Shown one piece after another: positions 2,835 to 57,936 of a stretch of 64,000 bases of DNA (the first letter of the stretch is position 1; every line of letters begins with the position of its first letter). The stretch lies in the NCBI GenBank assembly GCA_024231215.1, contig JAAEQR010000003.1:22660-86659 (forward strand), given 5' to 3'. The notes below the pieces were generated by a model. That model was not told where the DNA came from. It was given only the letters and a program-made list of their open reading frames with translations, and ran no database searches. Made by a program: the position numbers and the translations under genes. The DNA comes from PVC group bacterium (GTDB lineage: Bacteria > Omnitrophota > Gorgyraeia > B26-G9).

Positions 2835-2940
2835 TTTGCTTGATATAAGATAAAAAAATGTTGTATGATTGGGGGTTTTGAAGGATAATAACGTGGTTAT
2901 TAAAAATAGGGGATTTGATTCATTGAATAGGAATAAAGCC

Positions 2941-3612: not shown

Positions 3613-3614
3613 TC

Positions 3615-29568: not shown

Positions 29569-29892
29569 TTCATGTATCGCATTTTTTCTGGAAAGTTTTT
29601 AGCCAATTCAATGCTTCTTCTTCTGCAGTAAACATTAAATCAGACCAATATATCAAGATGTAACTTAGTATATACTGATGATTGTATCATAAGATATAAT
29701 TGGGTGCAATATTATTTCATATAGAGTTAAATATTAATATAATCTTAAAAAATCTTATAAACTTAGTAAAATTGAATTGGGCGTTACGATCAACAAAAGA
29801 AAGGTTGAAAGTTTTCAGTAAATGAAGTAACATATAAAAATAACTCTTATTTGTTCTTAGTTGCCGGGAAAAAAGGAAAATCTGACGATATA

Positions 29893-30852
29893 ATGGAGAG
29901 ATTAGTAAATACCCAAAGTGGAAAGCATAGCTTGGTTGGTCGAAGTAATTCGATGCTGACTGTCTATGAACTAATAGAAAAAATTTCTCCGGTTGATGTC
30001 GGGGTCTTATTGATCGGGGAGAGTGGAACGGGTAAAGAGTTGGCAGCACATGCAATACATGGTAAAAGCGCACGAAAAGATATGCCGTTTGTTGCTGTAA
30101 ACTGTGCTGCGATTCCGGATACTTTAGCGGAAAGTGAATTGTTTGGACATGAAAAAGGGGCGTTTACCGGTGCGCAGGCAAAACGCAAGGGGAAGTTTGA
30201 ACTTGCGGATAAGGGTACTTTGTTTTTAGATGAGATCGGGGATATGAGCCTTGAAGCACAGTCCAAGATGCTTAGGATACTTGAAGAAAAGAAGTTGGAG
30301 ACGGTTGGGGGAGAGCAGAGTATTTTAGTAGATATCCGAATTATTGCCGCTTCAAACAAAGATCTTCTTCAAAAAGTAAAAGAGAGAACATTTCGGTCGG
30401 ATCTCTATTACCGACTGAATGAAATGAGAATAGACCTGCCTCCGCTAAGAGAAAGAAAAGAAGATATCTCGTTGCTGGTAAAGCATTTCATTGAGTTGTT
30501 TAATCAAGATTTTAACAAAAAAGTAAAAGGGGTTTCTGATACTGCTTTAAGTTATCTTATTAAACATAGTTGGCCTGGTAATGTTCGGGAATTGAAAAAC
30601 GTGATTAAAAGGGCAATTGCTTTAATGGAATCAGAAGTCATTTGGCTGGAGCATCTGCCGTTTGAGGTAAGGTTGCAGGCAAAAGATTATCTTAAAGACG
30701 ATTTCTCCTTGAAACAGATAGAAAGGTGTCATATTGCCGCGATATTAAATAAAACGAAATGGAACAAGAAAATGGCGGCAATGATTCTTGAAATTTCGAG
30801 GCCAAGATTAGATCGTAAAATAAAAGAGTATAATTTGACGGAGGGTAAGTAA
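29893..30852 (+). CDS. Sigma54-dependent transcriptional activator lacking any N-terminal sensor or receiver domain (AAA+ plus Fis-type HTH only)
   Basis: GESGTGKE Walker A, GAFTGA loop (EKGAFTGAQ), DEIGDM Walker B, and a C-terminal HTH (KKMAAMILEISRPRLDRKIKEY). The AAA+ domain begins about 15 aa after the ATG at 29893. Confidence 0.85.
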   Translation: MERLVNTQSGKHSLVGRSNSMLTVYELIEKISPVDVGVLLIGESGTGKELAAHAIHGKSARKDMPFVAVNCAAIPDTLAESELFGHEKGAFTGAQAKRKGKFELADKGTLFLDEIGDMSLEAQSKMLRILEEKKLETVGGEQSILVDIRIIAASNKDLLQKVKERTFRSDLYYRLNEMRIDLPPLRERKEDISLLVKHFIELFNQDFNKKVKGVSDTALSYLIKHSWPGNVRELKNVIKRAIALMESEVIWLEHLPFEVRLQAKDYLKDDFSLKQIERCHIAAILNKTKWNKKMAAMILEISRPRLDRKIKEYNLTEGK

Positions 30853-31266
30853 GTGATTAAAAAAATAAGTATAGGTAGAGAGATTTGTGTGAGTGTTTTA
30901 AATGAAGTTGGCGTATTATCCCGGACAACTTCATTTTTAGTAAATAATGGTATAAATTTAGAGGCGGTTACCGGTTACGCGAGGAATATAGGAGAACCAG
31001 CTGAACTTATGTTTGTAACTAATGATAACCTGGCGGCAATTGATATATTGACTGAAGCTGGATATGATTCTGTGGAGGAAAACGATGTGCTTGTCGTGGA
31101 ACTTGAAAATACTCCGGGAGCATTAAAGAATATTTCTGTGCTTTTATCTCAGAACGGACTAAATATTATATATATATATGGAACTACTTGTAACAAAGGA
31201 TGTCCGGCCAAGATTATTTTAGCAACATCGGATAATCGTCGGGCTCTGGCGTTGCTGAAGAGTTAG
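30853..31266 (+). CDS. Stand-alone tandem ACT-domain protein
   Basis: Two ACT-like units (ICVSVLNEVGVLSRTTSFLVNNGINL.. and VLVVELENTPGALKNISVLLSQNGLNI..). The GTG start directly follows the activator's stop codon. Confidence 0.65.
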   Translation: MIKKISIGREICVSVLNEVGVLSRTTSFLVNNGINLEAVTGYARNIGEPAELMFVTNDNLAAIDILTEAGYDSVEENDVLVVELENTPGALKNISVLLSQNGLNIIYIYGTTCNKGCPAKIILATSDNRRALALLKS

Positions 31267-31352
31267 AATCGGCTTGAAAATAAAAGATTGTAGTAGTATT
31301 ATAAATATTGTTAATAGATAATGTTTTTTTATAACAAGAAAGGGGGCAGTAC

Positions 31353-32825
31353 ATGAGGAAGGGACGGTATGTTGTTGTCGTTGCGGTAGCGGTTGCTTTG
31401 TTGTTGGCAGGGACTCAGTCAGCTTGGGCGCTGGACAGATTTTTAATTGGAGCACGCGGCGCAGGGATGGCTGGAGCTAATGTAGCGTGTGTAAATGATA
31501 CAACCGCGCAGTATTATAATCCGGCGGCGTTTGGTTTTATGGTTGAAGAAAGAAAAAAAGATACTGATCCGGGTAATTTTGCATGGGATACTAATATGGG
31601 GCTTGGATATCGTGTCCATGAAAATCTGGGAAAACTTTTGGATGATTTATCTAAAATAGATATTACGGAATTGGGTGCAAATGATATTCAGAACGAAACA
31701 GATTTGCAGAACTTGACTAAGGCGGCTGAGTTTATTAGCCGGCTTGATGATAAGGGAAACGCGATTAGTGTGGATGGCAATGCCGGCACAGGTGTTCGGA
31801 TAAATAATTTCGCGATCGGGGTGCGTGCTATGTATCAGGCTAGCGCAAGAGTTGCCACTGTTGATATAGCCAATCTGGGAATTGGAGTTAATATTGCTGG
31901 ACTAAATACTGATATTAATGCTGTTACATTAACGGGCGATGATGGACTGACATCTCTTTTCACCGGAGCGCAGGTAACACAGCTGACAACCGCAGGTTTA
32001 AATGCGGCTTCGATTCAACAGCTTGATTTCGCGGCAAGGCAAGCAGGGGTTAGTAGCGGGTCTACTGAATTACAACAGGCAGTTGACATGCTTGGTAGCG
32101 TTGCTACGGCAACAGCCAGTGCAACTGGTGGAGAAATTGAAAATAACACCACCAGCGCTGTATTAGAAGGATTTGGAGTGTATGAGATCCCGATTTCTTA
32201 CGGACGTGCCTTGAATGAGCATGTATCTATTGGTGGAAATCTGAAAATAATGAAGGGTAAAGTCTACGGGACCGAGATGATTGTTTTTAAAAATGATTCC
32301 GGCGATATTATGAAGGAAGCGGATGAAAATTATAAAGAGACTACGACTTTTGGTTTAGACCTGGGTGTAATGGCTAAATACGGAAAATTTAGCTACGGGC
32401 TTGTTGGCCGCAATTTAAATTCTCCAAAATTTGACGGGCCTACGGTTAATGCCAGAGTGTTCAATGATGTCACTATTGATCCTCAGGTTACTGCGGGTGT
32501 GGCATATCTTCCGTGGAACGGGTTGGTCTTAGAGTGTGATTATGATCTGACCAAGAGTGAAACAGGGTTGCCGGGATATGATACAAAGAACCTGTCTTTA
32601 GGTGTGGAATGGATGCTTATGCGGATTCTTTCTTTACGTGGTGGTATGTATGATAACATGGAAGAAAGCGATATCGGTTGGGTATATACAGCTGGTGTTG
32701 GTATAAATCTGCCATGGGTAAGCCTGGAAGTAGCCGGGGCGATGTCTTCTGATAAAAGTGATTATGACGGAGATAGTATTCCAGAAGAAAGTCGTGTTAC
32801 TGCACAGCTGAGCATTGGGTTTTAA
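31353..32825 (+). CDS. Outer-membrane beta-barrel protein, TraF_2/PorV/FadL-like
   Basis: Signal peptide ..TQSAWA, N-terminal GARGAGMAGANVACVNDTTAQYYNPAAFG, alternating beta-strand patterns, and a terminal ..AQLSIGF. Confidence 0.7.
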   Translation: MRKGRYVVVVAVAVALLLAGTQSAWALDRFLIGARGAGMAGANVACVNDTTAQYYNPAAFGFMVEERKKDTDPGNFAWDTNMGLGYRVHENLGKLLDDLSKIDITELGANDIQNETDLQNLTKAAEFISRLDDKGNAISVDGNAGTGVRINNFAIGVRAMYQASARVATVDIANLGIGVNIAGLNTDINAVTLTGDDGLTSLFTGAQVTQLTTAGLNAASIQQLDFAARQAGVSSGSTELQQAVDMLGSVATATASATGGEIENNTTSAVLEGFGVYEIPISYGRALNEHVSIGGNLKIMKGKVYGTEMIVFKNDSGDIMKEADENYKETTTFGLDLGVMAKYGKFSYGLVGRNLNSPKFDGPTVNARVFNDVTIDPQVTAGVAYLPWNGLVLECDYDLTKSETGLPGYDTKNLSLGVEWMLMRILSLRGGMYDNMEESDIGWVYTAGVGINLPWVSLEVAGAMSSDKSDYDGDSIPEESRVTAQLSIGF

Positions 32826-32860
32826 GAATAAATTGTAAGTGTTTTAAAGTAGTAGATAGA

Positions 32861-32896
32861 AGAGGAATTCCCTTTATGGGGATTCCTCTTTTTTTG
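32861..32896 (+). terminator. Strong intrinsic terminator after the beta-barrel gene
   Basis: 12-bp stem agaggaattccc / ggggattcctct with a 5-nt loop, followed by T8. Confidence 0.9.
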
Positions 32897-32958
32897 AGCC
32901 TTCCTTTAGATGTATTAATACATATTTTCTTTATTTGTAATAAGATAGGATTATTGAT

Positions 32959-32987
32959 TTGCTGAGAATAGAAAAATATGGTATACT
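32959..32987 (+). promoter_or_regulatory. Cluster promoter P1 (TTGCTG-17 nt-TATACT, embedded in ATATGGTATACTT)
   Basis: Read directly from the sequence. It shares the ATATGGTATACTT block with P2-P6. Confidence 0.6.
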
Positions 32988-33020
32988 TCACTACTTTTTT
33001 TAGATCTATGTAAATTAAAA

Positions 33021-34271
33021 ATGACTGGATATGAAATGCGAAAAATATTAAAAATAACCGGATGTATTTTCCTGTTAGCGGGAGTTTTATGTAATGCGCA
33101 AATTGGGGTTTCTCAAGAAGCGTGTTCTAATAATTTACTATCTCCGCGGCTTTCATTACAGCAGGAACATTTTCTTAGGATTTTTTCTGCAGATAAAATT
33201 CCGGCTATTAGACGGACTACGGATAGTAAAACTACTTATTTACCTGCGGATTATAGTTTGGAGGTAAAGGAAATACTTGTCCAGGTGAATTATTGGGGAA
33301 CTATGGAATATGTGATAGACGAAATACATCAAAAACTTCCGCAAGATATTGCGATGGTTATCATTTTTAATGAACGCATTAAGCCGTATTTAGATTATGC
33401 TAAAAACAAGTTATCTTCTCGAAAAGTAAGATTTATAATGTCTGAAAAAATCAGCGTTTGGGCAAGAGATAATTATATCTATTCTTTTTCTAAAAACAAA
33501 CCGATAATGGTGTTTCCAGACGGAGAGTTGCTGCGTAATATGATAGAATTGACGACAGATAAAAGAGCTATCTATAAACTCGCGAAGAAGTTGAAAATAA
33601 AAATAAAACAGGCAAAGTTTCATTTTACCGCGGGTGATATTATGACGGATGAAGAAAATATATTTGTCGGTGCGGCTACTATGCAGGATAACTTTAATAG
33701 ATATAAAATGTCTTGGAAGGAAACGTCTAAAAAAATGCAGGCTTTATTTGGAAATCCGATAGAAGTTCTGCAATTAGATGTAAATGATATTGATAATGTG
33801 CTTACTCTTTTACCGGGCAAGCGGGCAGTATTGGGTAATAATGAGCAGTTTGATAGTTTTTTAAAGGGCCATTATCATGAAAAAGTTGGTGACATTAAAA
33901 AACGTTTACTGGAGTTAGGATATGCGGTTATTGATATCCCCTGGCGGCCGCATGAAATTGATCATGGCCATGCTGATACGACTACGCTGATCTCTTATAA
34001 TAATGTTGTCTTTTTAGACCGTGATAGAATACTTTTGCCTCAGTATGGAATACCGGCAGATAAGGAAGCCATAATGACTTGGGAGCAATTAGGCTATAAG
34101 GTTATCCCGGTTCAGGCATTTTGTAACGGGGAGCATGGCGGAAGTATTCGTTGTTTTACGAATATTATCAACGCTGATTTTATTAATTATGATTCCGAAG
34201 ATTCTTCTAGAATATTCTGTCCCTCAGTTTCTCTTCAGCCGTTAGAACAATTGATTGAAATGGCTATATAA
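33021..34271 (+). CDS. Tagged-family member 1: exported agmatine/peptidyl-arginine deiminase-like protein (guanidino-group-modifying fold)
   Basis: VWARDNY, FHFTAGDIMTDEENIFVG, HGHADTT and GEHGGSIRCFTN (catalytic Cys context). The leader is followed by LLSPRLSLQ and the C-terminus is QLIEMAI. An alternative start is the ATG at 33036. Confidence 0.75.
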   Translation: MTGYEMRKILKITGCIFLLAGVLCNAQIGVSQEACSNNLLSPRLSLQQEHFLRIFSADKIPAIRRTTDSKTTYLPADYSLEVKEILVQVNYWGTMEYVIDEIHQKLPQDIAMVIIFNERIKPYLDYAKNKLSSRKVRFIMSEKISVWARDNYIYSFSKNKPIMVFPDGELLRNMIELTTDKRAIYKLAKKLKIKIKQAKFHFTAGDIMTDEENIFVGAATMQDNFNRYKMSWKETSKKMQALFGNPIEVLQLDVNDIDNVLTLLPGKRAVLGNNEQFDSFLKGHYHEKVGDIKKRLLELGYAVIDIPWRPHEIDHGHADTTTLISYNNVVFLDRDRILLPQYGIPADKEAIMTWEQLGYKVIPVQAFCNGEHGGSIRCFTNIINADFINYDSEDSSRIFCPSVSLQPLEQLIEMAI

Positions 34272-34372
34272 AGTTCAGAATCCACCCCATTTTTACAAGC
34301 TACTTAAAAAATTGTCAAATCTAAGCCGTAACTAGCTGCGAGTAAAAGGGATATGTAAAACATGTCCTTACC

Positions 34373-34401
34373 TTGACAGAAGTATATACCTATGGTATAC
34401 T
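34373..34401 (+). promoter_or_regulatory. Cluster promoter P2 (CCTTGACA-17 nt-TATACT)
   Basis: TTGACA at 34373-34378 and TATGGTATACTT, with the hexamer at 34396-34401. Confidence 0.7.
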
Positions 34402-34457
34402 TTTGAGTCTTTTTATTTTACCTAATAAAAATATATAAAAAAACAAGGAGATTTGTT

Positions 34458-37400
34458 ATGATTTCAGTATTAAGTCGTAATTTTTTCTTTAGAACAACCG
34501 CAATTATTTTAATTCAAGCATTTTTATTAATAGACATATCGTGGGCCTGTGGTGGGAGGCTTAATGATATTGATGACAGTAAGGTTTTTGAAGATAACTA
34601 CCTTGCTCCTTCCTTAATTATTAATCACTCTGACTTTTCAAGTTATTTTTCTAGTCCAGAAGATATTACTGCGAATCAATTCAGTAGTTTAAGTTCTGCA
34701 GAAATCGAAACCTTAACATATAAACTTGGCCTAACTCTTACCAATGAAAAGCAAGCAGCAAGAGAGATTGAAGAGATTAAGAAAGAACAATTTAAAATAA
34801 TGGATCAGTTTAGTGAAGGGTTAGAGAACAAGGAGCAACGTGAAAAAGCTTTGAATCAGGTAGTAAGAGATACCAATAAAGCGATTGATACTTTAAGGGC
34901 TGATTTTGTTGTGCAGGAGAGGGCAAAAGCTGAGTTAAAAATTAAAGCAGAAGAGTTGAAAATAGAAGCAGAAATTGCAAAGCTAAAATTAGGCAAAGAG
35001 AGAAGAGAAAACTTTGCGAAAGAAGCTCAGCAGGCATATGATCAGGAAATCGCCAAGCTTATTAAAGAAATCAAAGATGCCGCGAAATCAAAAAAAAGAA
35101 AGGCAGAGGAAGAGTATAAGGAACGTGTTAGCAAAATTGAGGAATGTGTTAGCAAAATTAAGGAGGGACTGCTTGAAGGAATATACATATCTGATTCGCT
35201 GGCTCAGGATATTGAAAAAATCAAGCAGGATACAAATGCCAGGATCCAAAAGATAGCTGCGGATATGCGTACTGAGAAGGGCTTTTTAAGCGATACAGTC
35301 AGGGGTATTATTATTGGCGTGTTTAAAATCGCCTGGTATTGGCCAAAAGGTAAGATAGCTGTTTTAAAGATTGAATTGAGCACTCATGAAGGTTATGATC
35401 TTAGCAAGTCTCGTAGTAGATTTAAGGCAGAAGTTAAGGAAATTAATAAATCTGCCAAGGCAGAGATAGAAGCGGTTAGGGACGGAAAAGATAAAAGGAC
35501 ACATAAACTTAAAGAAGAGCTTGATCAGGCTGGTTTAAATATTGAAAAAGATAAAACGAGGCTGGAACAGCTGGAATCAGATAAGAAAAAACAGCCGGAA
35601 ACAATTAGACAAGAAGTAGAAAACGCAATAAAAGAAGCTCAGAAAGATGCAGCTTTAAAAATCCTTAGCGGTCTTCAAGGTGATGAATATGTAGAACTCA
35701 GGCTGAAGGCTTTAGAAACTGTTTTGCCGCTGGTTAAATTATACGAAGACCGCCAGTCAGAAGGCCAGATGGACATGAGAATTGAAAGTAGGGAGGAGTC
35801 CATTGCCGCTTTATTTTTACGCGCGTATCGGGAAGGGCTTAGCGCTATTTCGATTACCGATGCTAAGCAATTACCTTCTCCTGAGGCGGCTAAGGCACAG
35901 CAGATTGTGAACAGACATATCAAGCGTTCTCGAAAGAAAAATGAAGATAAAAGAAAACCGCTGAAATATATTCCGGGAATCGAATTAGTCGTGTCTCTGG
36001 ACGGAGAGAAAGTTCCGGTAATTATCTATCTGCCGGAAAATTCACGTAACTTGGCGAACGATAAGACTGTTCAGGATTTGCTGGCGCGTAGAAGACCGTT
36101 TATGTTACAGGAACTCGCCCATATTTTATACGTATATAACGGAAAGATTGCTTTAGCCGATGCTCATAAATCTCTAAAAGCAGCGCAGATATTTTTTGAA
36201 CGCATGGCGGAATTTGTAATTAAAGGCAGGATCCCGTTGCGGTCCGTATTAGGGGTCGTATATTATGAAGGAACAAAGCAAAAATCTGATGAGCCGGACA
36301 GTCCGGAGAAACAGAAGCTGATGGAGTATATCGCCCGGCTTTGCGTACACCATCCGGTTTATAAACAGAGTGAGCTTTTCTTTCTGCCGGGAACTAATTT
36401 CAGCGGTAGTGTAGATCTGGAAAAGGAAAATATGCTCGGCAGCGGAGCGGATCGTCATCCGCATGAAACGAGTTATCGAGATAGGATTTTAAAGGCAGTA
36501 AATTATAAATCGGGATTATGGGAGAAGATTGTTTATGAATATGAGGGGTTTTTAAAAAACGTTTATATTTGGGGTTTAATGATTACGGCAGGTGTAACGA
36601 TTGTTGGGACACATTCACTTATTTTGGCCGGACTTTTTGCGGTGATGTTCTATTATTTGATTGCGACATATCCTGGATCTAAAAAAAGTGCATTAAAACA
36701 ACAGGTGCAAGTAATTCCCCAGGCAGATATTGCGTCAGAGGAAATGATGAAATACAAAGATTGGAAATTTGATCCGGCTAAAATTCCTCAACCCAAACCA
36801 GAAAGCGAAAAGAGTGCTTCTAAATGGGGAAAAGTGATGGAAACCGCAGGAAATATTTTTGATAAACTGGATATATTAGAAAATCTTTTTTATAGAGCGA
36901 CAGCCGGGACTAAGTATTTTGCCGGCAGTTTGAGAGAGCATTTAAATAAAAATAAGATCACAAATAACTTTTTCAGAAACGATTTGAAGCCCTGGCAAAA
37001 ATGGACTTTCTTTATTTCCAGTTTGACAATAAGCGGAGTATTGGCCGGTTGGTTGGCCGGCAGTGCATGGCTCGGAATTAAAATAGGGGCATTAGTCTGG
37101 GGTATTGCAATAGCGTTAAAGATTTTTGTGTACATAACCGATTGGGATATGGTGCTTTTACTTTTTGGATTTGCTGGTAGTGGGATAGCCGGATGGTTCT
37201 TGGGAAAAGACTACCCGTGGCAAGGAGCTTTTATTGGTCTTACCGGGTGGACGGGTTTTTTAAATAGGAAAGGAATAATATCCTTTTTTAGAGACAGAAT
37301 AAGAAAAGAGATTGATTTTTATAAACGTTTTAGGATGCTTGGGCCCAAGGCTGTTTTTATCCGAAAGACTCTGAAATTACAGCAGGATATGGCTAAGGGA

Positions 37401-38723
37401 ATTGTATATGTGAATATGGTGGGAAAATCGTTTGGCCTGAGAAAAATAGAGGTTGTGAATGTTTTGGCTAAACATGGTTTTGAATATGTAAAGATACAAG
37501 ATGCCAGCACATTGGTATTTGCCAAAAAGGACGTGATGAGAAGGATCGGAGCGGAATTTTTGAAAACAGCTTTAGAAAAATCCGGCACTTCCTGGGAGAA
37601 GATGACCGAGACTTTAAATAAGATCACAGAACATTTTGAAAAAATGCTGGTCGAGGTAACGCTGAGCACAGGGAACGGCAGGACACGTAAAATGTTTATC
37701 CCGGATCCGAGAGAAATTGCCGATGATCAGGTTATGTATAAGCTTTACCGGATTATCGCCATGTACAAGGCACAGGGATTAGTTTTGGAAAATCCCCAAA
37801 CCCGTCTGGTGGTTGATGTAAAAGGAGCGGACGGACAAGTCAGACCAGTTACAGCAAACGAATTGGCCTTAGTTATGAATAAATATTTTGACATTGTAGT
37901 ACCCATGCCGGAGGAGGGAAGTACGCCGGTGAAATCCAGGATTAGTCAGGGGGAGGTAAGGATACTGGAAGCTACCGGACAGCTTAATGAACTTTGGGAA
38001 CAAGGGGTTAAATCTTTAGTTTCGATCAACCTTGGTTCGCAGATCAGAGTGATTGTTGCGGAATTGCTCAAAGATGAAAAAATCGGAACAATTCGGGTAA
38101 CCTCTTATCCGACAGAATTAGGGCGTGACCTGATTGATTTTAGCTCCGAGGCCGGGAAATCGGTAGAAAGTTTGATCAGTGATCAGGCAATATTGGAGGC
38201 GGCGGAAGAGATGGGCTTACTGGAAACGATTGCGCGAGAGTTTAATATGGATAAGGAGAGCGTAACCCCTGAGCATATCGGACTGATCGCTGCCGGGCGA
38301 AATCCTTTTAATCAGGAGCAAGAGTTATACCAGCCTGTAGAGGTTAAAAAGTCGACGATGCATATGGGCAGTAAATATTTTGGCGGAGACACCGGGTCTA
38401 AGCTTGAGCGATTAGAGGCTGTGGCCCAGGAGTTATGGAAAAAGATAGATCGCAAAATAGCGGATTTTATCATCAAGCTGGATGCGGATAGAGCTGCGGA
38501 ACCGGGAAAGACCTCTTATCATCTTAGCGGAGAAACAATGACTTTGGATATCGCTAAGTTAAGAACGGAAAATTTGCGCCGGTTTCTTGAAGAGAAAAAG
38601 GCTGAGCATATCGAATTTTCCTGCGGGGAAGACCCCCTATCGGGAAACGCAATAATCGACCATGATTTAGAGCGGTCTTCTGAGATTACCGAACCTGCTT
38701 TGTTGGTTGAAATGGCGATTTAG
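34458..38723 (+). CDS. Tagged-family member 2: 1421-aa protein with a K/E-rich coiled-coil region and an internal multi-TM block
   Basis: Leader IILIQAFLLIDISWA, YLAPSLIIN box, Lys/Glu-rich heptad-like sequence at about nt 34720-35700, 6-7 hydrophobic helices at about nt 36560-37265, and C-terminus LLVEMAI. Confidence 0.85.
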   Translation: MISVLSRNFFFRTTAIILIQAFLLIDISWACGGRLNDIDDSKVFEDNYLAPSLIINHSDFSSYFSSPEDITANQFSSLSSAEIETLTYKLGLTLTNEKQAAREIEEIKKEQFKIMDQFSEGLENKEQREKALNQVVRDTNKAIDTLRADFVVQERAKAELKIKAEELKIEAEIAKLKLGKERRENFAKEAQQAYDQEIAKLIKEIKDAAKSKKRKAEEEYKERVSKIEECVSKIKEGLLEGIYISDSLAQDIEKIKQDTNARIQKIAADMRTEKGFLSDTVRGIIIGVFKIAWYWPKGKIAVLKIELSTHEGYDLSKSRSRFKAEVKEINKSAKAEIEAVRDGKDKRTHKLKEELDQAGLNIEKDKTRLEQLESDKKKQPETIRQEVENAIKEAQKDAALKILSGLQGDEYVELRLKALETVLPLVKLYEDRQSEGQMDMRIESREESIAALFLRAYREGLSAISITDAKQLPSPEAAKAQQIVNRHIKRSRKKNEDKRKPLKYIPGIELVVSLDGEKVPVIIYLPENSRNLANDKTVQDLLARRRPFMLQELAHILYVYNGKIALADAHKSLKAAQIFFERMAEFVIKGRIPLRSVLGVVYYEGTKQKSDEPDSPEKQKLMEYIARLCVHHPVYKQSELFFLPGTNFSGSVDLEKENMLGSGADRHPHETSYRDRILKAVNYKSGLWEKIVYEYEGFLKNVYIWGLMITAGVTIVGTHSLILAGLFAVMFYYLIATYPGSKKSALKQQVQVIPQADIASEEMMKYKDWKFDPAKIPQPKPESEKSASKWGKVMETAGNIFDKLDILENLFYRATAGTKYFAGSLREHLNKNKITNNFFRNDLKPWQKWTFFISSLTISGVLAGWLAGSAWLGIKIGALVWGIAIALKIFVYITDWDMVLLLFGFAGSGIAGWFLGKDYPWQGAFIGLTGWTGFLNRKGIISFFRDRIRKEIDFYKRFRMLGPKAVFIRKTLKLQQDMAKGIVYVNMVGKSFGLRKIEVVNVLAKHGFEYVKIQDASTLVFAKKDVMRRIGAEFLKTALEKSGTSWEKMTETLNKITEHFEKMLVEVTLSTGNGRTRKMFIPDPREIADDQVMYKLYRIIAMYKAQGLVLENPQTRLVVDVKGADGQVRPVTANELALVMNKYFDIVVPMPEEGSTPVKSRISQGEVRILEATGQLNELWEQGVKSLVSINLGSQIRVIVAELLKDEKIGTIRVTSYPTELGRDLIDFSSEAGKSVESLISDQAILEAAEEMGLLETIAREFNMDKESVTPEHIGLIAAGRNPFNQEQELYQPVEVKKSTMHMGSKYFGGDTGSKLERLEAVAQELWKKIDRKIADFIIKLDADRAAEPGKTSYHLSGETMTLDIAKLRTENLRRFLEEKKAEHIEFSCGEDPLSGNAIIDHDLERSSEITEPALLVEMAI

Positions 38724-38772
38724 CGATAATAGTTTATAACTATCTTAAAATAAATAAGTTACATTCTATCCC

Positions 38773-38801
38773 TTGACGAAGTATGCCTTATATGGTATAC
38801 T
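38773..38801 (+). promoter_or_regulatory. Cluster promoter P3 (CCTTGACG-17 nt-TATACT)
   Basis: TTGACG at 38773-38778 and TATGGTATACTTTAC, with the hexamer at 38796-38801. Confidence 0.7.
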
Positions 38802-38861
38802 TTACTACCTATTTTTAAATAATCCAAACTATAATAATAACCTATTGGGAGAAAACAAGTT

Positions 38862-41800
38862 ATGGGTATCAATAAGAAATACCTATATCTAAGAATTATT
38901 GCATGTATTCTAATACAGGCGGTTTTGTTTGGTAACAGCGGCTTGATCGGAGTAGTGCGCGCAGAAAACTTCCTGTCGCCGGTTTTAGAAATAAATAATA
39001 AGCTGGTTAAGACTTCGTTTGAAACTCCTCAGGTAAAAAGTCGTCGTTTTGTTCATAATCTGGATGATTTATCAAAACTTTCCCGCCGCAAAAGAGATGA
39101 TCTCGAAATAAATGTTCTTAAAAGAATTAGAAATATTAATCTCAAAGGTTTTAATTTTTTATCAAGGGAGGAGCAGGAGAATTTCATTTTTGTTGATTTG
39201 GACTTTGCGGAGTATGTGTTAAAGACTATCTTTACCGATAAGATTAAAGAGGACATGTCTCAGAAGAACGTATCTTATGAAATCATAACAAGGATTATAG
39301 TAGACATGTTTATTCTTTTAAACAAGGTGTTAGAACAACAAGAAGGACAGGATAATACCTATATCGCATGCACTAATTATACTTTTTCTAAAGATAGAAA
39401 AGGACAGACATATGTACTCACGGTTAATTTTGAGAAAAAAGGAGTGGAAGCTAAAATATCAAAATTTATAGCCGAAGAAATTGATGCAGAAATGCCGAAT
39501 ATTGTCTCAGTGTCCGGGCCGATAGAAAAAATCACTGGAAATAAAAGTATAGATGTTAGTTTTTACGGGGTTTCAAAAAATAACAAAGTGCTTACCCCAT
39601 CGGAAATAACCCGAGCAGTGAAGAAGCTGCCGCCGAACGCAGAGAATATAGATATTTCGGAATTAAGAATTGCGCATAAAAGATTACTTAATTTGGCCAG
39701 AGATCGTTACGAAAAACAGGATATTTTAAAAGAAATAACCCCAGCCATAGAGAGGAAAATAAAAACAGGTATTGTTGCGGAAGGGACATCTTCTTTTACC
39801 CCGATTACTGAGAAGGCTTTTGTGGGAAAGATTATTTGCGCGGAAGTGGTAGAAAAAGAGAAAAAGCCGACATATCCTTTAGTTTCATATTATTCGGAAA
39901 CATTGAGGAAAGATCTGAGATTATTAGATAATGCTATAAATACGGCTATGTATAAGTATGAAGGTATAGATATTAATACGGTTCATCATTTTTTGCAGGA
40001 TGCCTTTGCGTTTGCAAGACATGATTCTCGGGAAACACGCAAGGCTCCGACAGCTCAATTTTTATCGCATCTTATGGATGAGCGGAAGGCAGTGCGGGTT
40101 AGAATTCGAAAGGAATTATTGGAGATTATTACATATACGCCGATGTTAAATAAAGACAATGAGCCAAGAGAGATTTCGGAAATCATGGAGGAAGAGCTAG
40201 CTGAGTTAGCGGAACTGCAAGATTACGAAGACAATATGTATATCTGGGGAGAACTGAACAGGCTTAATCAAGAGGATTTGCTATGGGATAACATCATGTC
40301 TCAAGCAAATGAAATTGTGGGTAATATATATCAATATATAGAAGGAGTGGACCCTGAACCTAAAAATGAAAAAGAGCAGATGGCTTTAGATGCGATTGAA
40401 AATGCGAGGAAGGCAGTCCCAACAGATACTCAAATTGGGTCTATGGTCGATACTGTATTACAAGATCTGCCGCGGCAGTTATTTGCCTGGTTAAGAAAAT
40501 ATGATTGTTCTTTACATGAGGCGTTTTTTCGGTCTATGCAACCTATTGTAGACCAGTTAGTTCAAGCTCAAGAACATACGTCGCAAATGAAAGGAGGGCT
40601 TTCTTTAAATCTCCATACCGAACTTTGTACTTTTGTGGATACTGTATTGTTGGAACTGGGAGAGTATGAATCGCGGCATGTAGTGGTACATAATGACTCG
40701 GAGAAGGAGCCATTTATATTATATGTGCCGGGAGACCTAGGAGGGCCGGAGGAATATTTGCGTTTTCGGCGTCTTTATCCGAATATGGTAGGGATTGTAG
40801 TTAAAGAAGGAGCTAAACATTATGCGGTAATGGCCGGAGATCACGGATTCCCGGTGATTAATAAAATTGATTTAATTGAAATGAGCGAAGGAAAATTGCC
40901 GTTAGAGCTGGTGTTAAAAAAGAAAACTAATGGAATTATGCGTATTAGCAGGGGAGGGAAAGCGTTTTTATATATAAACCCTTCATTGAGGGATACCCTT
41001 GAGGCGGAAACTATTATAAAAACAGCGCAGGCAATTAAAATATTGTGTGAAGCTAATATAGATTTAGAAGGAGAAGATGGGAAATTAAAGACGTATGATG
41101 GAGTAGAAGCGCCTGAGATAATGATGAATTTGGATATTGCCGAAGATGCGGAAGACTTGCCGAGCCGGGTAATACGGAAAATAGGTCTTTATCGTACAGA
41201 ATATGAGTATGAACGTCATGGAGAGTTAACAGAAGAAGCATGGTATAAAATTTTTAAGAAAATTGTTAAAGATTCAGAGGGCGATTTTATCGCTGTACGT
41301 TTACCGGATAGAAAAGTATCCGGAGAAGGTGGGGATATAAAAAATCCTAAAGCTTTTGGAAAAAGTAATCTTGAAGGACTTGATTTTTTGCTTGATGAAA
41401 GAGCTAAGGGCAGGCGAATCTCAACGATAATATTAAGGGCCCTTATGAGAGTATATGCAGAAGACGGAGTCGTAGGTGCTCTTTTTCCCATGGTTTCGCA
41501 AGAAAGAGCCGAAGGAATAATCGACTTTGTCGAAGAAATAAAAGAGAATTTAATCTTTGAACAAAAAAATAAAAATAAGCGGGAAGCTTTGGAAGAGGCG
41601 TTAGACAGCTTTTCCGTGGGAGCGATGTTTGAAACTCCTCAGGCTTTTGAATTTAAAAAAGAGCTTATGGAGATTTTTGATTTTGTAAGTTGGGGGAGTA
41701 ATGACTGGAAGATGGCTTCTTCCGGGAAGTCAAGAGGTGCTCAGGGAACGACCAAAGAATTGATTTCATTTACGCCTGAGGTTGTAAAAACCGCATTAGC

Positions 41801-42191
41801 GGCAGGTAAGATGAGCAGGAAGAAGGAAGTACCTTTTTCTATCTGTGGTAAGCTTGCGTCTACCCCTGAATTCATTCTATTTTCACTATATGCAAAGTCG
41901 TTGTCGCTTTTTGATATCCGACTAAGCGTTGGTAAAGATTCTATAGCGTACGTCAAAGAATTTATTCGCCATGTCGATACTAGACGCATTAAAGATATCT
42001 TTAATGATTATCGAAAAGGTTATGATCAGAATAAATTTGATGAGAAAATAGCAGATGAAATAGAAAACATAGTGCTTTCTATGGGAGAATTAGCCAAGCC
42101 TTTTCTACAGGGACAAGTTAAGATGTCGTTACAGAAGAAAAGGGGGCAGGCATCGAAGGCTCCTGTGTTAGTGCATGAGTATGCAATATAA
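38862..42191 (+). CDS. Tagged-family member 3: 1109-aa protein whose C-terminal half resembles PEP-utilising enzymes (swivel His-domain plus TIM barrel, PtsI/PPDK-like)
   Basis: GAKHYAVMAGDHGFPVI (compare GGxTSHAAIxARxxGIPAV), GLYRTEYEY (compare GLFRTEFL), LFPMVS, VGAMFETPQAF, FVSWGSNDW (compare SIGTNDL) and FSICGKLAS (compare CGEMAG). Leader ILIQAVLF, FLSPVLEIN box, C-terminus LVHEYAI. Confidence 0.8.
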   Translation: MGINKKYLYLRIIACILIQAVLFGNSGLIGVVRAENFLSPVLEINNKLVKTSFETPQVKSRRFVHNLDDLSKLSRRKRDDLEINVLKRIRNINLKGFNFLSREEQENFIFVDLDFAEYVLKTIFTDKIKEDMSQKNVSYEIITRIIVDMFILLNKVLEQQEGQDNTYIACTNYTFSKDRKGQTYVLTVNFEKKGVEAKISKFIAEEIDAEMPNIVSVSGPIEKITGNKSIDVSFYGVSKNNKVLTPSEITRAVKKLPPNAENIDISELRIAHKRLLNLARDRYEKQDILKEITPAIERKIKTGIVAEGTSSFTPITEKAFVGKIICAEVVEKEKKPTYPLVSYYSETLRKDLRLLDNAINTAMYKYEGIDINTVHHFLQDAFAFARHDSRETRKAPTAQFLSHLMDERKAVRVRIRKELLEIITYTPMLNKDNEPREISEIMEEELAELAELQDYEDNMYIWGELNRLNQEDLLWDNIMSQANEIVGNIYQYIEGVDPEPKNEKEQMALDAIENARKAVPTDTQIGSMVDTVLQDLPRQLFAWLRKYDCSLHEAFFRSMQPIVDQLVQAQEHTSQMKGGLSLNLHTELCTFVDTVLLELGEYESRHVVVHNDSEKEPFILYVPGDLGGPEEYLRFRRLYPNMVGIVVKEGAKHYAVMAGDHGFPVINKIDLIEMSEGKLPLELVLKKKTNGIMRISRGGKAFLYINPSLRDTLEAETIIKTAQAIKILCEANIDLEGEDGKLKTYDGVEAPEIMMNLDIAEDAEDLPSRVIRKIGLYRTEYEYERHGELTEEAWYKIFKKIVKDSEGDFIAVRLPDRKVSGEGGDIKNPKAFGKSNLEGLDFLLDERAKGRRISTIILRALMRVYAEDGVVGALFPMVSQERAEGIIDFVEEIKENLIFEQKNKNKREALEEALDSFSVGAMFETPQAFEFKKELMEIFDFVSWGSNDWKMASSGKSRGAQGTTKELISFTPEVVKTALAAGKMSRKKEVPFSICGKLASTPEFILFSLYAKSLSLFDIRLSVGKDSIAYVKEFIRHVDTRRIKDIFNDYRKGYDQNKFDEKIADEIENIVLSMGELAKPFLQGQVKMSLQKKRGQASKAPVLVHEYAI

Positions 42192-42202
42192 AAGAGGATA
42201 TT

Positions 42203-44296
42203 ATGGGATTTTCTGGTAAAAAAAGATCGGGCAAATCAATATCTTCACGAATTATCACCCTGATAATTCTACAGATCTTTTTTGTCTCAGGATTGTTGTC
42301 CCTAGGCAATAGCTTTGCTGCGGATACTCACCAAACCTGCCTTTCTCCCCGTGTAAATATATCTAATGCGCTAGTCAAAAATTCTTTTAGTACCTTTAAA
42401 AAGCTTAATTTAAATGATTTGTTTGAAGGATTTGCAGAGGGTATTCTAGACATCGATAAGGTAGATCACTGGTTAGTTGGTCGCAATGAATCTATCGCTT
42501 ATGAGTTTAAAACAGATTTAGTTCCTAAAATTGTACAACAACCCAATGCAAAATGGTTTTTAGAACAAATACTTGCAGAAGATAAACTTAAGCCATTACA
42601 TTTTGAAGCCCAAGCTGTTCTTTTGCAGATACGTTTTAAAGAGCTTGGATATCCTAACCATAACCCAGCCTGGAGACATTTTATATCTTCGATGAAAGAA
42701 GGGCTTCAATTCCTGGAAAACCCTGAAAACTTAGAGAATAAGGATGTAGTTATCGGCACTTGTCATGTGGCTGCGGATTCGGATTCTGTGGCTGCGGCAA
42801 TTACGTGGTATGAACGGGAAAGAATGTTAGCAGAGAATCGAGGAAAGGTTTTTATTCCTTTGATCTCTAATGAGGACAGGGATATAAATCTTGAAACAGA
42901 GAGACAATTGCATATTTGTGGGATAATAGCAGAGGATCTGATATACGCTTTTCCTAGTAAAGAGATGGAGAAAAGAGGCGAGGTTAAAAGCCTGATACAG
43001 CAGAAACTTGAGGCTATTGCTAAAACAAAATATAAGAGTAGAATAAAAATTGATTTGCTCGATCATAATGCGGTACAGGTTGACTGGTTAAAACCTTTTA
43101 AAGTACGTAAGATATATGATCATCATAACCCGGAAGTGGATATGCCGGAATTGGCCCCGGGAAATGATTATGTCCGCATTGAAGCCTCCACGACAACCAT
43201 AATTGCTCAGGAAAACATGAAAGATCGTATTTTCCATAGATCATTTCCACAGATAAAGTTTTTGACTATGGCTACCTTGCTTTCAGATACAGACTGTTTA
43301 AATTCAGATATTACACAGCAAGAAACTCTCGGGATTTTATCTCGGATGGCAAAGGATATGGGTTTTTTAAAAAAAGTGCAGTTAAATGGCGGCATAGGCT
43401 CTAGTGGTAAGATTGATTTTGAAAAAATGGAACGCTATTTTGAAATCATAGTTGATAGGGTTTATCTGAACCGGCATTCTTATGTAGAGGAATGGCTGAG
43501 GGATTGTAAGACATATAATGGGTTTGAATTCGGCCAGTCAAAAGTTATATCTTGGGAAGAGTTGTCTGAGAAAAAAGAAATGGAATTAATCGAAGGCATG
43601 AGAAATAAACTTAATGAAAACGATGACAATGAAGCTATTGTTTGGATGGTATCTTCAATGAATCCGTCTGAGTATGGCAGTAAATTTTATGCAATATGTA
43701 AAGATGACCCAGATGGGGCTAAGGCAGAACAGATTATTAGCCAGGTGATGTATCAAAGTCCGGTAAGGATCGGGCTGGTGCGGTCGATATATGTGAATCC
43801 GGCAATACATGCGTACCAGAAAGACTCTCCGGTGAATCCAGTGAGAGTTTTGAATAGAGCTTATAGACAATTTGATCTTAATCTGGATAGATCAACCAAG
43901 AAACAGATGATGGAAAAGATAAGCAATTTGATACAAGATTATGGAAGTAGATTGAAAAGGGATTTGGTTTATAGATATTATTCGTATGAAATAACCAGTG
44001 ATATAATTGAATTTCTGGAGTCAAAAGGCATATCCTGGATACATGCGGAAGTAATGAAGCCGGAAAAAATATATATCGAGGAAATAGGATTAAAAAACGA
44101 AAGAACGCGCAGGGTTCAAATGCCTGGATTTGCTTCCCGGAAGAATATAAAAAATGAGGTTGAAGGCGCAGTCGCGGAAATCATCAGAATAAATAAAGCT
44201 GAGAGGACATTGCGTTTGAACCTCCGCAATGAAATTATGGGCGCTGATGCTGCTTTTGGAATTCAAGCAAAAGAGTTAGTCTTACAGGCTATTTGA
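42203..44296 (+). CDS. Tagged-family member 4: DHH-family phosphoesterase-like protein (family II pyrophosphatase / nanoRNase-type motifs)
   Basis: CHVAADSDSVAAA (DxD), LLDHNAV, IYDHHNP (DHH) and TLLSDTDCL motifs. Leader IILQIFFV, CLSPRVNIS box, C-terminus ELVLQAI. The start is 11 nt after the previous stop. Confidence 0.8.
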   Translation: MGFSGKKRSGKSISSRIITLIILQIFFVSGLLSLGNSFAADTHQTCLSPRVNISNALVKNSFSTFKKLNLNDLFEGFAEGILDIDKVDHWLVGRNESIAYEFKTDLVPKIVQQPNAKWFLEQILAEDKLKPLHFEAQAVLLQIRFKELGYPNHNPAWRHFISSMKEGLQFLENPENLENKDVVIGTCHVAADSDSVAAAITWYERERMLAENRGKVFIPLISNEDRDINLETERQLHICGIIAEDLIYAFPSKEMEKRGEVKSLIQQKLEAIAKTKYKSRIKIDLLDHNAVQVDWLKPFKVRKIYDHHNPEVDMPELAPGNDYVRIEASTTTIIAQENMKDRIFHRSFPQIKFLTMATLLSDTDCLNSDITQQETLGILSRMAKDMGFLKKVQLNGGIGSSGKIDFEKMERYFEIIVDRVYLNRHSYVEEWLRDCKTYNGFEFGQSKVISWEELSEKKEMELIEGMRNKLNENDDNEAIVWMVSSMNPSEYGSKFYAICKDDPDGAKAEQIISQVMYQSPVRIGLVRSIYVNPAIHAYQKDSPVNPVRVLNRAYRQFDLNLDRSTKKQMMEKISNLIQDYGSRLKRDLVYRYYSYEITSDIIEFLESKGISWIHAEVMKPEKIYIEEIGLKNERTRRVQMPGFASRKNIKNEVEGAVAEIIRINKAERTLRLNLRNEIMGADAAFGIQAKELVLQAI

Positions 44297-44379
44297 TCAA
44301 TTTGTACCCAGTCGTAAACCCGCCGCAAAATTTATTTCTAACCATCTGAAAATAAAAGACTTAAAAATCTCGCCAGACC

Positions 44380-44408
44380 TTGACAGGTTGTATTTCATAT
44401 GGTATACT
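44380..44408 (+). promoter_or_regulatory. Cluster promoter P4 (CCTTGACA-17 nt-TATACT)
   Basis: TTGACA at 44380-44385 and ATATGGTATACTTTACC, with the hexamer at 44403-44408. A GC hairpin gggccg/cggccc (44436-44456) lies in the leader. Confidence 0.7.
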
Positions 44409-44480
44409 TTACCGCTTTTATAATAATTAATGTAGGGGCCGCGCTCGGCTCGGCCCGAATAGTCTATAGAAGAGGTAAAT

Positions 44481-49409: not shown

Positions 49410-49475
49410 TTACCGATTTTATTTATCATTTTTTAGCAACTTTTTAAAGTGTATTTAAGAAAGAAGGAGTTTTTT

Positions 49476-56667: not shown

Positions 56668-57936
56668 ATGAGTAGTAGATTTGGAGTAATATTTAAAATC
56701 ATTGTAATAGTACTTGTGCAGGCATTTTTGACGTTAGATCTTGCTTGGGCTGCGCAGGGGAATCTGCGTTCGTTTCAAGCGGATGATACTATTTCTCCTT
56801 ATATCCAGGTCGAAAATATTTCTTTGCAGGCCGGATTTTCTGTTTTATTTACTAAGGTTGCTGTGAAAGATATTGCTCAGATTGAAACTATTGAGAGTAT
56901 AGAGCAAAACACTACTAACTCATCCATCCTATCTCAAATCAGAAATTGGATGGAAAGATTTTTTCTAAAAATCACATTTTCTTTAGGACAGATATTGTTA
57001 GGGTGGACTGGACTTGTTTGGGCGCAGGAGCATATAGAAGAATATAACGGCCCTTATTTTGATAACGTATGGTCGTATTGGTGGTATCGGACATGTAATT
57101 TTTTTACAAATCCAGTTGTTTTTAAGACTGTATTGGTTATCTCAGGTGTAGCAATGGTTTTTTTAGTCGCGAGTTTTGTTGTAGCTAACCTGATGACAAG
57201 TAAAAAAGATAGAAGCAATCTGGGAATGGTGATATTGATTGGTTTGATTGGTTATTTGGTTCTAAGCAGTGATATAGGCAATAAAGTACAAGACTTTTTC
57301 TTTCCCGATGTTATGCCTGATATGAAGACTTCGACACAAAAGAGTATTATGGAGCACAAATTAGGACTCCCTGGAGTAGGCATACAGACAAATGCGGTGC
57401 ATTCGGAAGTAATACAAGAATTCACCTCAAAAGGAAAAACAAGGAAAAATGTAATTATAAACGGAAAGATAGTAGGAGATAATATTCCTCAGAAGAGTTT
57501 TACACTTGATCAGAATGAGATTGTCTTGGCTGTATTGTTCATGCTTGCAGGGATTTTTTTAATTGATCATGCAATAAACAAAAATAAAAGAGGTCAGAAA
57601 ACATTAATAGATATATCTTTTGCTTTCTGGGGCCCGATAATAGAGGAGATAATTGAGATATTGAAAGCGTCATCTCAATCTGCAGGCCAGCTGGTAACGA
57701 TTAATGAATCAGACATAGCTGATTTACCATCAGAGACTGAGACTGTGTTGGATCAGTCAGGGGTGTTTTTCTCGGATAAGAATTCTGCCCAGGGAGAGCT
57801 TCAGCTTTATATGGAACAATTCGGGGCGCTTCTTTATCCTACAAACTGGGATGATTTTCGAAAAGCAGAACAGGTGCATCGTAACCGGCTGAATAATTGT
57901 AGTACATCATATGTTTTGCTGGAACAGGCTGTTTAG
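56668..57936 (+). CDS. Tagged-family member 9: 422-aa polytopic membrane protein
   Basis: Leader VIVLVQAFLTLDLAWA, TISPYIQVE box, about 4 internal hydrophobic helices, C-terminus VLLEQAV. Confidence 0.8.
   Translation: MSSRFGVIFKIIVIVLVQAFLTLDLAWAAQGNLRSFQADDTISPYIQVENISLQAGFSVLFTKVAVKDIAQIETIESIEQNTTNSSILSQIRNWMERFFLKITFSLGQILLGWTGLVWAQEHIEEYNGPYFDNVWSYWWYRTCNFFTNPVVFKTVLVISGVAMVFLVASFVVANLMTSKKDRSNLGMVILIGLIGYLVLSSDIGNKVQDFFFPDVMPDMKTSTQKSIMEHKLGLPGVGIQTNAVHSEVIQEFTSKGKTRKNVIINGKIVGDNIPQKSFTLDQNEIVLAVLFMLAGIFLIDHAINKNKRGQKTLIDISFAFWGPIIEEIIEILKASSQSAGQLVTINESDIADLPSETETVLDQSGVFFSDKNSAQGELQLYMEQFGALLYPTNWDDFRKAEQVHRNRLNNCSTSYVLLEQAV

Follow-up and report, generated by a model that had tools for sequence, protein, structure and literature searches.

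What role may be played by a protein that combines an export leader, a long charged helical region, and hydrophobic internal segments is the question raised by a gene of PVC group bacterium (Omnitrophota), which occupies positions 34458-38723 of the window, that is, of the whole 64,000-nucleotide stretch of contig JAAEQR010000003.1 analyzed here. The product of this gene, a protein of 1421 amino acids (aa), is considered, at an even chance, to be an Omnitrophota-specific, Sec-exported, and membrane-embedded anchor or scaffold of a non-catalytic type, rather than an enzyme. An initial annotation, made from the DNA sequence, had proposed a component of delivery or anchoring rather than a payload. 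The anchoring part of this proposal is supported here, given that both enzyme-like modules of the protein have lost catalytic or nucleotide-binding residues, while other members of the gene cluster keep enzyme domains. The features of the gene and its product are as follows:

34373-34401, + strand: sigma-70-type promoter, TTGACA, a spacer of 17 nucleotides (nt), and TATACT, with a TG extension; the extended element TGGTATACTTT lies at 34393-34403
34445-34450, + strand: AAGGAG, the ribosome-binding site, separated from the ATG by 7 nt
34458-38723, + strand: whole open reading frame (ORF), ATG start, 1421 aa plus stop
34458-34547, + strand: leader (aa 1-30), with a basic n-region, the h-region TTAIILIQAFLLIDI with a conserved polar Q, and SWA before the predicted signal-peptidase I site
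34599-34625, + strand: N-terminal box YLAPSLIIN (aa 48-56), consensus L-[AS]-P-x-[LIV]-x-[IV]-[NSQ]
34695-35747, + strand: K/E-rich long-helix region (aa 80-430), with about 320 aa of helices according to AlphaFold2 (AF2), composition, and periodicity
35295-35372, + strand: hydrophobic, Trp-rich amphipathic insert within the helical region (aa 280-305), TVRGIIIGVFKIAWYWPKGKIAVLKI, hydrophobic moment (muH) 0.30
35748-36410, + strand: PHP-fold pseudoenzyme domain (aa 431-651), the best conserved part, 42% identical to the homologue P0002
36561-36671, + strand: hydrophobic block 1 (aa 702-738), free of charges over its 37 residues, with GTHS as a turn in the middle; it may form a hairpin of two helices or a single long helix
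36672-37001, + strand: polar K-rich loop (aa 739-848, 110 aa), 20 K+R versus 13 D+E; an amphipathic helix is predicted at aa 784-828
37002-37262, + strand: hydrophobic block 2 (aa 849-935, 87 aa), about four helices with 0-3 residues in the turns between them, rich in Gly (17%) and Trp (9%), and with three motifs of the glycine-zipper type
37263-37847, + strand: R/K-rich juxtamembrane helix, then an alpha/beta domain without an assigned fold (aa 936-1130), common to P0002 and P0006
37848-38669, + strand: probable remnant of a ROK/ASKHA sugar-kinase-like module (aa 1131-1404), N-lobe missing, LGTGVG changed to LGSQIR and ELGH to ELGR
38700-38720, + strand: C-terminal tail LLVEMAI, consensus hydrophobic-hydrophobic-x-x-[AGS]-[IV]-COOH

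The leader, the box, and the tail are referred to together as the tag. The ORF is a real gene with its own promoter and ribosome-binding site, with an ATG start preceded by AAGGAG, a near-consensus promoter, and a collinear full-length homologue. The promoter lies 57 nt 5' of the ATG, and is the top sigma-70-like match in the 14 kb scanned (31000-45000). The product is identical to the NCBI entry "MAG: hypothetical protein GY853_00290 [PVC group bacterium]".

Scans of Pfam and NCBIfam recovered no match to the protein, and thus no housekeeping inner-membrane family, which was one of the two outcomes that the initial annotation had set against its own proposal. The word-indexed homology searches (with the full protein, the alignment of leader and box, and the profile of alignment A2) returned either the protein itself or no match, and the sequence and profile searches of the PDB (with the protein, P0002, the C-terminal profile, and the helical profile) returned no meaningful match. 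An exhaustive phmmer search, with aa 431-1421 as the query against 1.84 billion representative proteins, recovered only six relatives, P0002 to P0007. The sole collinear full-length homologue among them is P0002, a protein of 1443 aa from a metagenome-assembled genome (MAG) of Candidatus Omnitrophota, which has the same succession of leader, box, helices with a Trp-rich insert, PHP domain, hydrophobic block, alpha/beta domain, C-terminal domain, and tail (GSSI). The identity between the two is 42% in the central domain, 40% in the leader and box, and 22-34% elsewhere. As P0003 to P0005 match the central domain only, and P0006, P0007, and a fragment in contig L008 the C-terminal part only, the protein is a fusion, whose modules are also found in separate proteins, and these often carry the same tags.

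The loss of the active site is clearest in the central domain, which has the distorted (beta/alpha)7-barrel of the PHP fold. The tie to bona fide PHP domains is indirect, given that the protein itself has no Pfam PHP match: aa 431-651 match P0003 (E = 2.7e-18) and P0004 (E = 2.3e-10) in phmmer, and these proteins match Pfam PHP (PF02811) at 36.4 bits and, just over the 26.4-bit cutoff, at 26.5 bits, respectively. In addition, P0003 aligns to RNase AM of E. coli (7ug9) over the HxH, SDG, TDHD, GVEI, and EIH motifs. In comparison with the PHP phosphoesterases (PF02811; RNase AM/YciV, 7ug9 and 9etk; BAD_1165, 3e0f/3o0f; the PHP domain of Pol III alpha), however, the metal ligands are replaced: LHSH has become MRIE, SDG is deleted, TDHN has become TDAK, and EIH has become KVP, with further changes of AHPNE to ADAHK and of GDSHG to GTNFSG. 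The only ligand retained is the Glu of IPGIEL, and P0002 has the same losses. The position of the domain, behind an export leader and beside transmembrane (TM) helices, is a further difference from those enzymes. Since the metal site is lost in both homologues, and yet this is the best conserved region, the domain would most simply be a binding module, retained for a non-catalytic function. The soluble region that the initial annotation had recognized past the helices is thus present, and can be specified as a PHP-fold domain.

The second enzyme-like module, at the C-terminus, is probably an ASKHA/ROK remnant without its nucleotide-binding lobe. P0002 and the L008 protein contain GxDxGGT-like and LGTGxG...ELGH motifs of the ROK/ASKHA kinases (PF00480). 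The last 270 aa of the 1421-aa protein match the second half of this module, while it has no N-lobe at all, and the Gly and His of the signature are gone. Relative to P0002, about 200 aa are missing, including the phosphate-1 motif of the N-lobe (DxGxT / GxDxGGT), which is found in P0002 (LGVDVGGGTIRL) and L008 (LGEDFGGGTSRL). In these two proteins, the N-lobe motifs read LGVDVGGGT and LGEDFGGGT, respectively, followed by LGTGVG...ELGH, which is presumably the order of motifs typical of the ROK kinases. The ROK signature LGxGxG...ExGH is represented by LGTGVG...ELGH in P0002, versus LGSQIR...ELGR in the 1421-aa protein. Pfam ROK gave no match in the protein itself, and a sub-threshold match in the C-terminal part of P0002 (15.7 bits versus a cutoff of 22.9 bits, E = 0.011). 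The best Foldseek matches of the AF2 model of the C-terminal half were hexokinases and glucokinases, which were not significant (E 0.13-1), while the PDB profile search of the C-terminal part found no match. A reliable fold assignment for this half was abandoned due to the low confidence of the model (predicted local distance difference test, pLDDT, 39).

The related kinase module of L008, a contig of a close relative, with an intact GGGT N-lobe, is split between two ORFs (2-1168 and 1173-1538), through either a frameshift or a genuine split. These ORFs lie directly 5' of an orthologue (1833-4853) of the patatin gene that begins at 46364 in the window, with 79% identity, in a gene order different from that of the window.

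The hydrophobic segments lie where the initial annotation had placed them (aa 702-936), and their charge-free runs are non-random: none of the 37 residues of block 1 is charged (corrected P about 3e-3), and only six of the 87 residues of block 2 (corrected P about 2e-4). These long-window and charge-free-run statistics replaced a single-window hydropathy shuffle, which was uninformative, given that 78% of the shuffles reached the threshold. The 19-residue Kyte-Doolittle peaks of the blocks reach 1.8-2.06. For the six to seven TM helices that had been announced, six is an upper bound, and they form two blocks (2 + 4) with the 110-aa loop between them, rather than one. In the AF2 secondary structure, which is of low confidence, there are six hydrophobic helices (2 + 4), of which those around block 1 span aa 687-714 and 720-737, while strongly hydrophobic 19-residue cores are restricted to three or four segments. 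All six helices have a low hydrophobic moment and a mean Eisenberg hydrophobicity of 0.56-0.79. In P0002, which has about four TM helices as against six, the positionally equivalent block is 34% identical to block 2 over the aligned part. These properties fit membrane segments, and not a soluble core. The segments are followed by 485 residues that end in LLVEMAI, close to the 480 originally estimated.

The helical region that precedes the PHP domain is rich in Lys and Glu, as first described over about 330 aa (K+E 30% in aa 88-415, versus 19% protein-wide), and AF2 places long helices at aa 80-121, 125-238, 246-291, and 315-405, with a confidence of about 50-60. The heptad-like pattern initially ascribed to it was not recovered. 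In the Fourier analysis of aa 90-405, the strongest hydrophobic period is 3.65 residues (11/3), which exceeds the 95th percentile of the shuffles, and the power at 3.5 residues is almost nil, while a crude heptad score is barely above the shuffles. A heptad coiled coil was rejected on these grounds. The helices of aa 80-430 are long and amphipathic, with an 11/3-type repeat and a hydrophobic Trp-rich interruption. Two tryptophans of this insert, W293 and W295, are kept in P0002, and the insert (aa 280-305) is possibly a membrane-contacting tip.

The leader is predicted to be a cleavable Sec-type signal of the classical n-h-c type, and the box begins 18 residues past SWA. Both had been noticed in the initial annotation, and both are common to 11 ORFs of the window:

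15252-16244, 33021-34271, 34458-38723, 38862-42191, 42203-44296, 44481-46349, + strand: first six tagged ORFs, each with leader, box, and tail
46364-49183, 49449-55019 (start 49449/49476), 55089-56639, 56668-57936, 58097-60730, + strand: other five tagged ORFs, each with leader, box, and tail

The box and the tail occur together in all 11 of these ORFs, and in no other window ORF of at least 100 aa (Fisher p = 2e-10). The box is found 3-20 residues past the predicted cleavage site, a small residue occupies positions -1 and -3 in each of the 11 leaders, and nine leaders have a Gln within the h-region (IQAFL), a motif absent from the ordinary exported proteins of the window (31353 and 25925). 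The shared C-terminus is limited to 6-8 residues after variable linkers; as this forms no domain, a C-terminal domain of the type IX secretion system (T9SS) kind was rejected. Synonymous codon differences in the tails of the 11 genes indicate that selection acts on the protein. No NCBIfam model matches the leader and box, and the tag has no description in NCBIfam, Pfam, or the Omnitrophota literature covered by a text search. The box is also present in P0002, P0004, and proteins of contigs L004, L005, L006, and L008.

A common N-terminal domain without a Pfam match was observed in P0005 (aa 30-290) and P0006 (aa 1-170), with the motifs …LWVNLSPYE… and …LRQ[AI]YNS[IM]ILATW[FY]K…. As the LSPYE of these proteins resembles the box, the box might be the remnant of a larger module.

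The tagged genes also share a promoter element. The exact 11-mer TGGTATACTTT occurs five times in the window (34393, 38793, 44400, 49401, and 58034), in each case 50-90 nt 5' of a tagged gene, and a copy with one mismatch (32979) precedes the tagged gene 33021, so that at least 6 of the 11 tagged genes are preceded by the element. With up to one mismatch, there are 11 matches in the window versus 1.6 expected (0 of 100 shuffles). The shared form, TTGACA-N17-(TA)TGGTATACTTT(A), precedes none of the housekeeping genes of the window. The element is also found 5' of tagged genes in L004 (5315 and 9889) and L008 (1751), and a variant with two mismatches, TTGACA-N16-GGTAAACTTT, precedes the P0002 gene (L001, about 9910). 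This conservation suggests a regulon, and the gene is linked to its neighbors by both the common tag and the common promoter.

The cluster mates and relatives keep recognizable enzyme domains. The mates include PAD-like, PEP-utilising, DHH-like (a sub-threshold Pfam match), patatin, and TPR proteins. In the tagged proteins of other Omnitrophota or metagenome contigs, Pfam recovers cytidylyltransferase, NAD(P)HX dehydratase, APH kinase, and methyltransferase domains, and regions of the L004 proteins, recognized by eye, are presumably guanylate-kinase-like and glycogen-synthase-like. The large tagged fusions are the following:

L004, 1-4872, 5395-9666, and 10001-12538: tagged fusion proteins with an export-type leader
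L006, 1865-6643: tagged fusion protein with an export-type leader
L005, 5375-7114: tagged fusion protein with an export-type leader

These fusions consist of nucleotide-dependent enzymes of a cytoplasmic type behind an export-type leader, which is the same paradox of localization as that of the giant Omnitrophota proteins.

The preferred explanation for the 1421-aa protein is that, following Sec export, the hydrophobic blocks would act as stop-transfer or hairpin anchors in the cytoplasmic membrane of the producer, while the helical stalk and the dead PHP domain would be exposed to the periplasm, where the co-regulated tagged enzymes or an envelope partner could bind to them. The role of scaffold or anchor is suggested by the loss of catalytic or nucleotide-binding residues in both the PHP and the ROK-like modules. 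In Sec export, hydrophobic stretches behind a signal peptide normally end up, through stop-transfer, in the cytoplasmic membrane of the producer. This makes the default either a topology in which the C-terminus is inside, or the own-membrane version of a hairpin topology. In the first, which is favored by the charge distribution, the leader would be cleaved, the N-terminal 670 aa would be periplasmic, aa 702-738 would form a single span, and the loop would be cytoplasmic, followed by four spans and a cytoplasmic C-terminal domain. This N-out/C-in layout obeys the positive-inside rule: R and K are abundant in the flanks that follow aa 738, precede aa 849, and follow aa 935 (+3, +3, and +6 in 15-residue windows), and the first 50 residues past block 2 contain 14 K+R versus 4 D+E. 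The alternative layout would consist of three tight hairpins, with all the soluble parts on one side. This keeps the box and the tail in the same compartment as those of the other tagged proteins, and agrees with the difference in helix number from P0002, which amounts to whole pairs. Overall, residence in the producer's own envelope is given an even chance or slightly better, and insertion into the membrane of another cell is considered rather unlikely.

A number of points weigh against this explanation. The best cores of the protein have Hessa sums of 0.0 to 1.1, versus -1.2 to -5.0 in the housekeeping membrane proteins of the same window, and such low hydrophobicity of the TM cores is shown by secreted TM effectors. 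The C-in topology puts the tail in the cytoplasm, while the tails of the soluble tagged proteins would be exported. The tagged 422-aa protein encoded at 56668-57936 raises the same conflict over the location of the tail: it has three or four hydrophobic segments, and its K/R-rich flanks favor an inward C-terminus if it resides in the producer's inner membrane. The six-helix hairpin topology, by contrast, violates the positive-inside rule as an inner-membrane layout. The topology is read from the sequence, the AF2 model of the C-terminal half is poor (pLDDT 39), and the scaffold role is suggested by the lost catalytic residues. Finally, P0002 stands alone among untagged genes. As this is the only full-length homologue, the initial observation that the gene is the first large one of the cluster also carries little weight.

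Insertion from the outside is central to the alternative that survives best, which is distinctly less probable than an even chance. Here, the protein would leave the producer, and its Gly-rich hairpins would insert from the cis side into the membrane of a prey or host, as an effector or translocon that anchors the tagged enzymes or helps to deliver them. The hairpin topology would be expected in this case, by analogy with the Inc proteins, TM effectors, and glycine-zipper toxins. The turns of 0-3 residues, with K/R-rich flanks on the side of the soluble domains, are consistent with this alternative, as are TM cores of lower hydrophobicity than in native inner-membrane proteins, and the composition of block 2, with its three glycine-zipper motifs, 17% Gly, and 9% Trp. 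The number of helices changes in pairs (six versus about four in P0002), which leaves both ends on the same side. Tagged proteins of the patatin, PAD-like, PEP-utilising, DHH, cytidylyltransferase, APH-kinase, and NAD(P)HX-dehydratase types need cytoplasmic cofactors, and yet carry export leaders. The Omnitrophota have also been inferred to be predators or parasites (PMC10066038), a lifestyle that would fit delivery into other cells. However, hydrophobic helices behind a Sec leader should stop-transfer in the producer's own membrane, no domains of the type III, IV, or VI secretion systems (T3SS, T4SS, T6SS) were found among the window ORFs scanned (18 in three Pfam scans, nine of them also in NCBIfam), and the other loci share no outer-membrane or secretion component in a conserved gene order.

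The comparison with the Inc proteins, which the initial annotation had drawn, is similarly divided. The Inc family is characterized by a bilobed hydrophobic domain of about 40-60 aa, a type III secretion signal without a Sec signal peptide, and localization in the host-derived vacuole membrane. A bilobed hydrophobic domain is found at aa 702-738, although its 37 aa are at the lower edge of this range. The 1421-aa protein resembles the chlamydial Inc proteins and TM effectors in this uncharged hairpin of about 40 aa, the flanking soluble domains, the moderate TM hydrophobicity, and the helical regions. It differs from them in the Sec leader, in place of a type III or IV signal, the additional four-helix block rich in Gly and Trp, the phylum, and the lack of sequence similarity, and no T3SS or T4SS is evident among the scanned ORFs. 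Strict membership of the Inc group is thus not upheld, given the Sec-type leader and the lack of T3SS matches among the scanned ORFs, and a translocon or Inc-like role is a minority reading. Of the layout on which it was based, the export leader and the internal hydrophobic hairpins are present, with no sign of translocon or pore function, or of delivery into another cell.

A more elaborate possibility, which is held with little confidence, is that the protein is the membrane component of an undescribed export or delivery pathway of the Omnitrophota, with a two-ended tag, a dedicated TGGTATACTTT promoter, and a cargo of nucleotide-dependent enzymes destined for prey. In this pathway, a dynamin-like stalk without a GTPase and glycine-zipper hairpins would anchor in or remodel the producer's own membrane, a vesicle, or the prey membrane, while the dead PHP domain would provide the docking site. 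A membrane-embedded dead member of the tagged set would be a natural candidate for the anchor or docking part of a pathway that reads the tag. If true, this would provide an entry point, through a motif, a promoter, and a protein, to the way in which the Omnitrophota handle or deliver their enzyme arsenal.

The Omnitrophota are uncultured, ultra-small bacteria that are thought to be predatory or parasitic, and their exported enzyme domains of a cytoplasmic type are an acknowledged puzzle, which the 1421-aa protein extends to proteins of intermediate size. Long proteins with a signal peptide and TM segments, and with enzyme-like domains on the exported side, are common in this phylum (bioRxiv 10.64898/2026.06.07.730766; bioRxiv 10.1101/2023.11.21.568195). 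The protein falls into this descriptive "SP+TM" class, and its homologues are found in Omnitrophota MAGs. It shares with the giant, Archaeovorin-type proteins (bioRxiv 10.64898/2026.06.07.730766, 10.1101/2023.11.21.568195, PMC10066038) the phylum, the signal peptide and TM segments, the export of cytoplasmic-type domains, and a divergent, mostly unannotated sequence. At 1.4 kaa, however, it is far shorter, it lacks SecA_DEAD, C39, dockerin, and CAZyme domains, and its enzyme-like domains are dead; a term search of those papers did not find the box, the tail, or the promoter signature. The protein family and its combination of domains are new, within the known theme of signal-peptide-plus-TM multidomain proteins of the Omnitrophota. 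The tagged set is sharply defined and apparently undescribed, and the regulon of tag and promoter is the more interesting object.

The helical region provides the basis for another alternative, in which the protein would be a dynamin-like membrane remodeler without a GTPase, whose stalk (middle domain, paddle, and GTPase effector domain, GED) carries aa 280-305 as its hydrophobic tip, and which would form vesicles or tethers and release the tagged enzymes in the manner of LeoABC. A PADLOC scan matched aa 98-396 to positions 307-584 of the 601 of the LeoBC profile, that is, the stalk half (E = 1.2e-6), and the same profile region matches P0002 (E = 3.4e-5), while the reversed sequence gave E = 3.2 and the shuffled sequence no match. 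In the Eleos/LeoABC system, LeoA is periplasmic, and LeoA and LeoB promote the release of vesicles (PMC4159319). The conserved Trp-rich insert amid the helices lies centrally, where a paddle would be expected, and may correspond to one. However, the scores are low (21-26 bits) in a compositionally biased sequence, the confidence of the AF2 helices is about 50-60, fold searches of the helical region recovered no dynamin-like structure, and the Pfam and NCBIfam scans found no P-loop or GTPase match anywhere in the protein. The similarity to LeoBC is thus a weak lead to a stalk with a hydrophobic tip, and not a classification, and the dynamin-like alternative is considered improbable. The K/E-rich helical neighbor 49476 (49449-55019), an all-helical tagged ORF of 1856 aa, has no match to LeoBC, and none to Pfam, dynamin-like, or other PADLOC models.

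It is equally improbable that the protein is an ordinary, lineage-specific envelope protein unrelated to its neighbors, formed by the decaying fusion of enzyme modules, with a signal peptide and C-terminus merely typical of the lineage. The family is tiny (six relatives among 1.84 billion proteins), both modules are degenerate, and the homologue is not clustered with tagged genes. In this case, the value of the protein would be modest, as an inner-membrane protein in which pseudoenzyme domains of long standing (PHP, and probably ROK) have been put to use in the envelope. However, the dead PHP domain is 42% identical between two distant genomes, in a collinear architecture, which points to purifying selection, and the tag and promoter are specific to the gene set and conserved in other genomes. 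The weakest alternative, and a very improbable one, is that the hydrophobic block forms the interior of a soluble domain, the other outcome set against the initial proposal, which would find room in the low-confidence AF2 model of the C-terminal half, but conflicts with the 37 uncharged residues of block 1, the six charges in 87 residues of block 2, Eisenberg values of 0.56-0.79 with a very low moment, TM-length helices joined by turns of 0-3 residues, and the equivalent block of divergent sequence in P0002.

The surroundings of the tagged cluster include a TraF_2/FadL-like (weakly PorP/SprF-like) outer-membrane beta-barrel protein directly upstream (31353-32825), and a sigma-54 enhancer-binding protein (29851-30852) and an ACT-domain protein (30853-31266) directly 5' of the cluster. 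Conserved synteny with these three proteins was rejected, as they have no homologues in eight related loci, and sigma-54 promoters were also rejected, as the -24/-12 consensus has 18 matches versus 23.5 expected. An untagged PlpD-like protein (25925-28153), with the patatin, POTRA, and Omp85 architecture of the type Vd autotransporters, lies kilobases upstream of the tagged patatin (46364-49183), and an exported 845-aa ORF without a Pfam match is found at 5231-7768.

The window contains no rRNA, tRNA, or Rfam element. Among its ORFs of at least 150 aa, 34 of the 38 are on the + strand, and three of the four on the - strand lie inside longer + strand ORFs, while the GC skew stays positive throughout (0.13-0.32). 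The seemingly empty last 3 kb belong to a pyruvate:ferredoxin oxidoreductase gene, which starts at 60980 and runs off the edge of the window.

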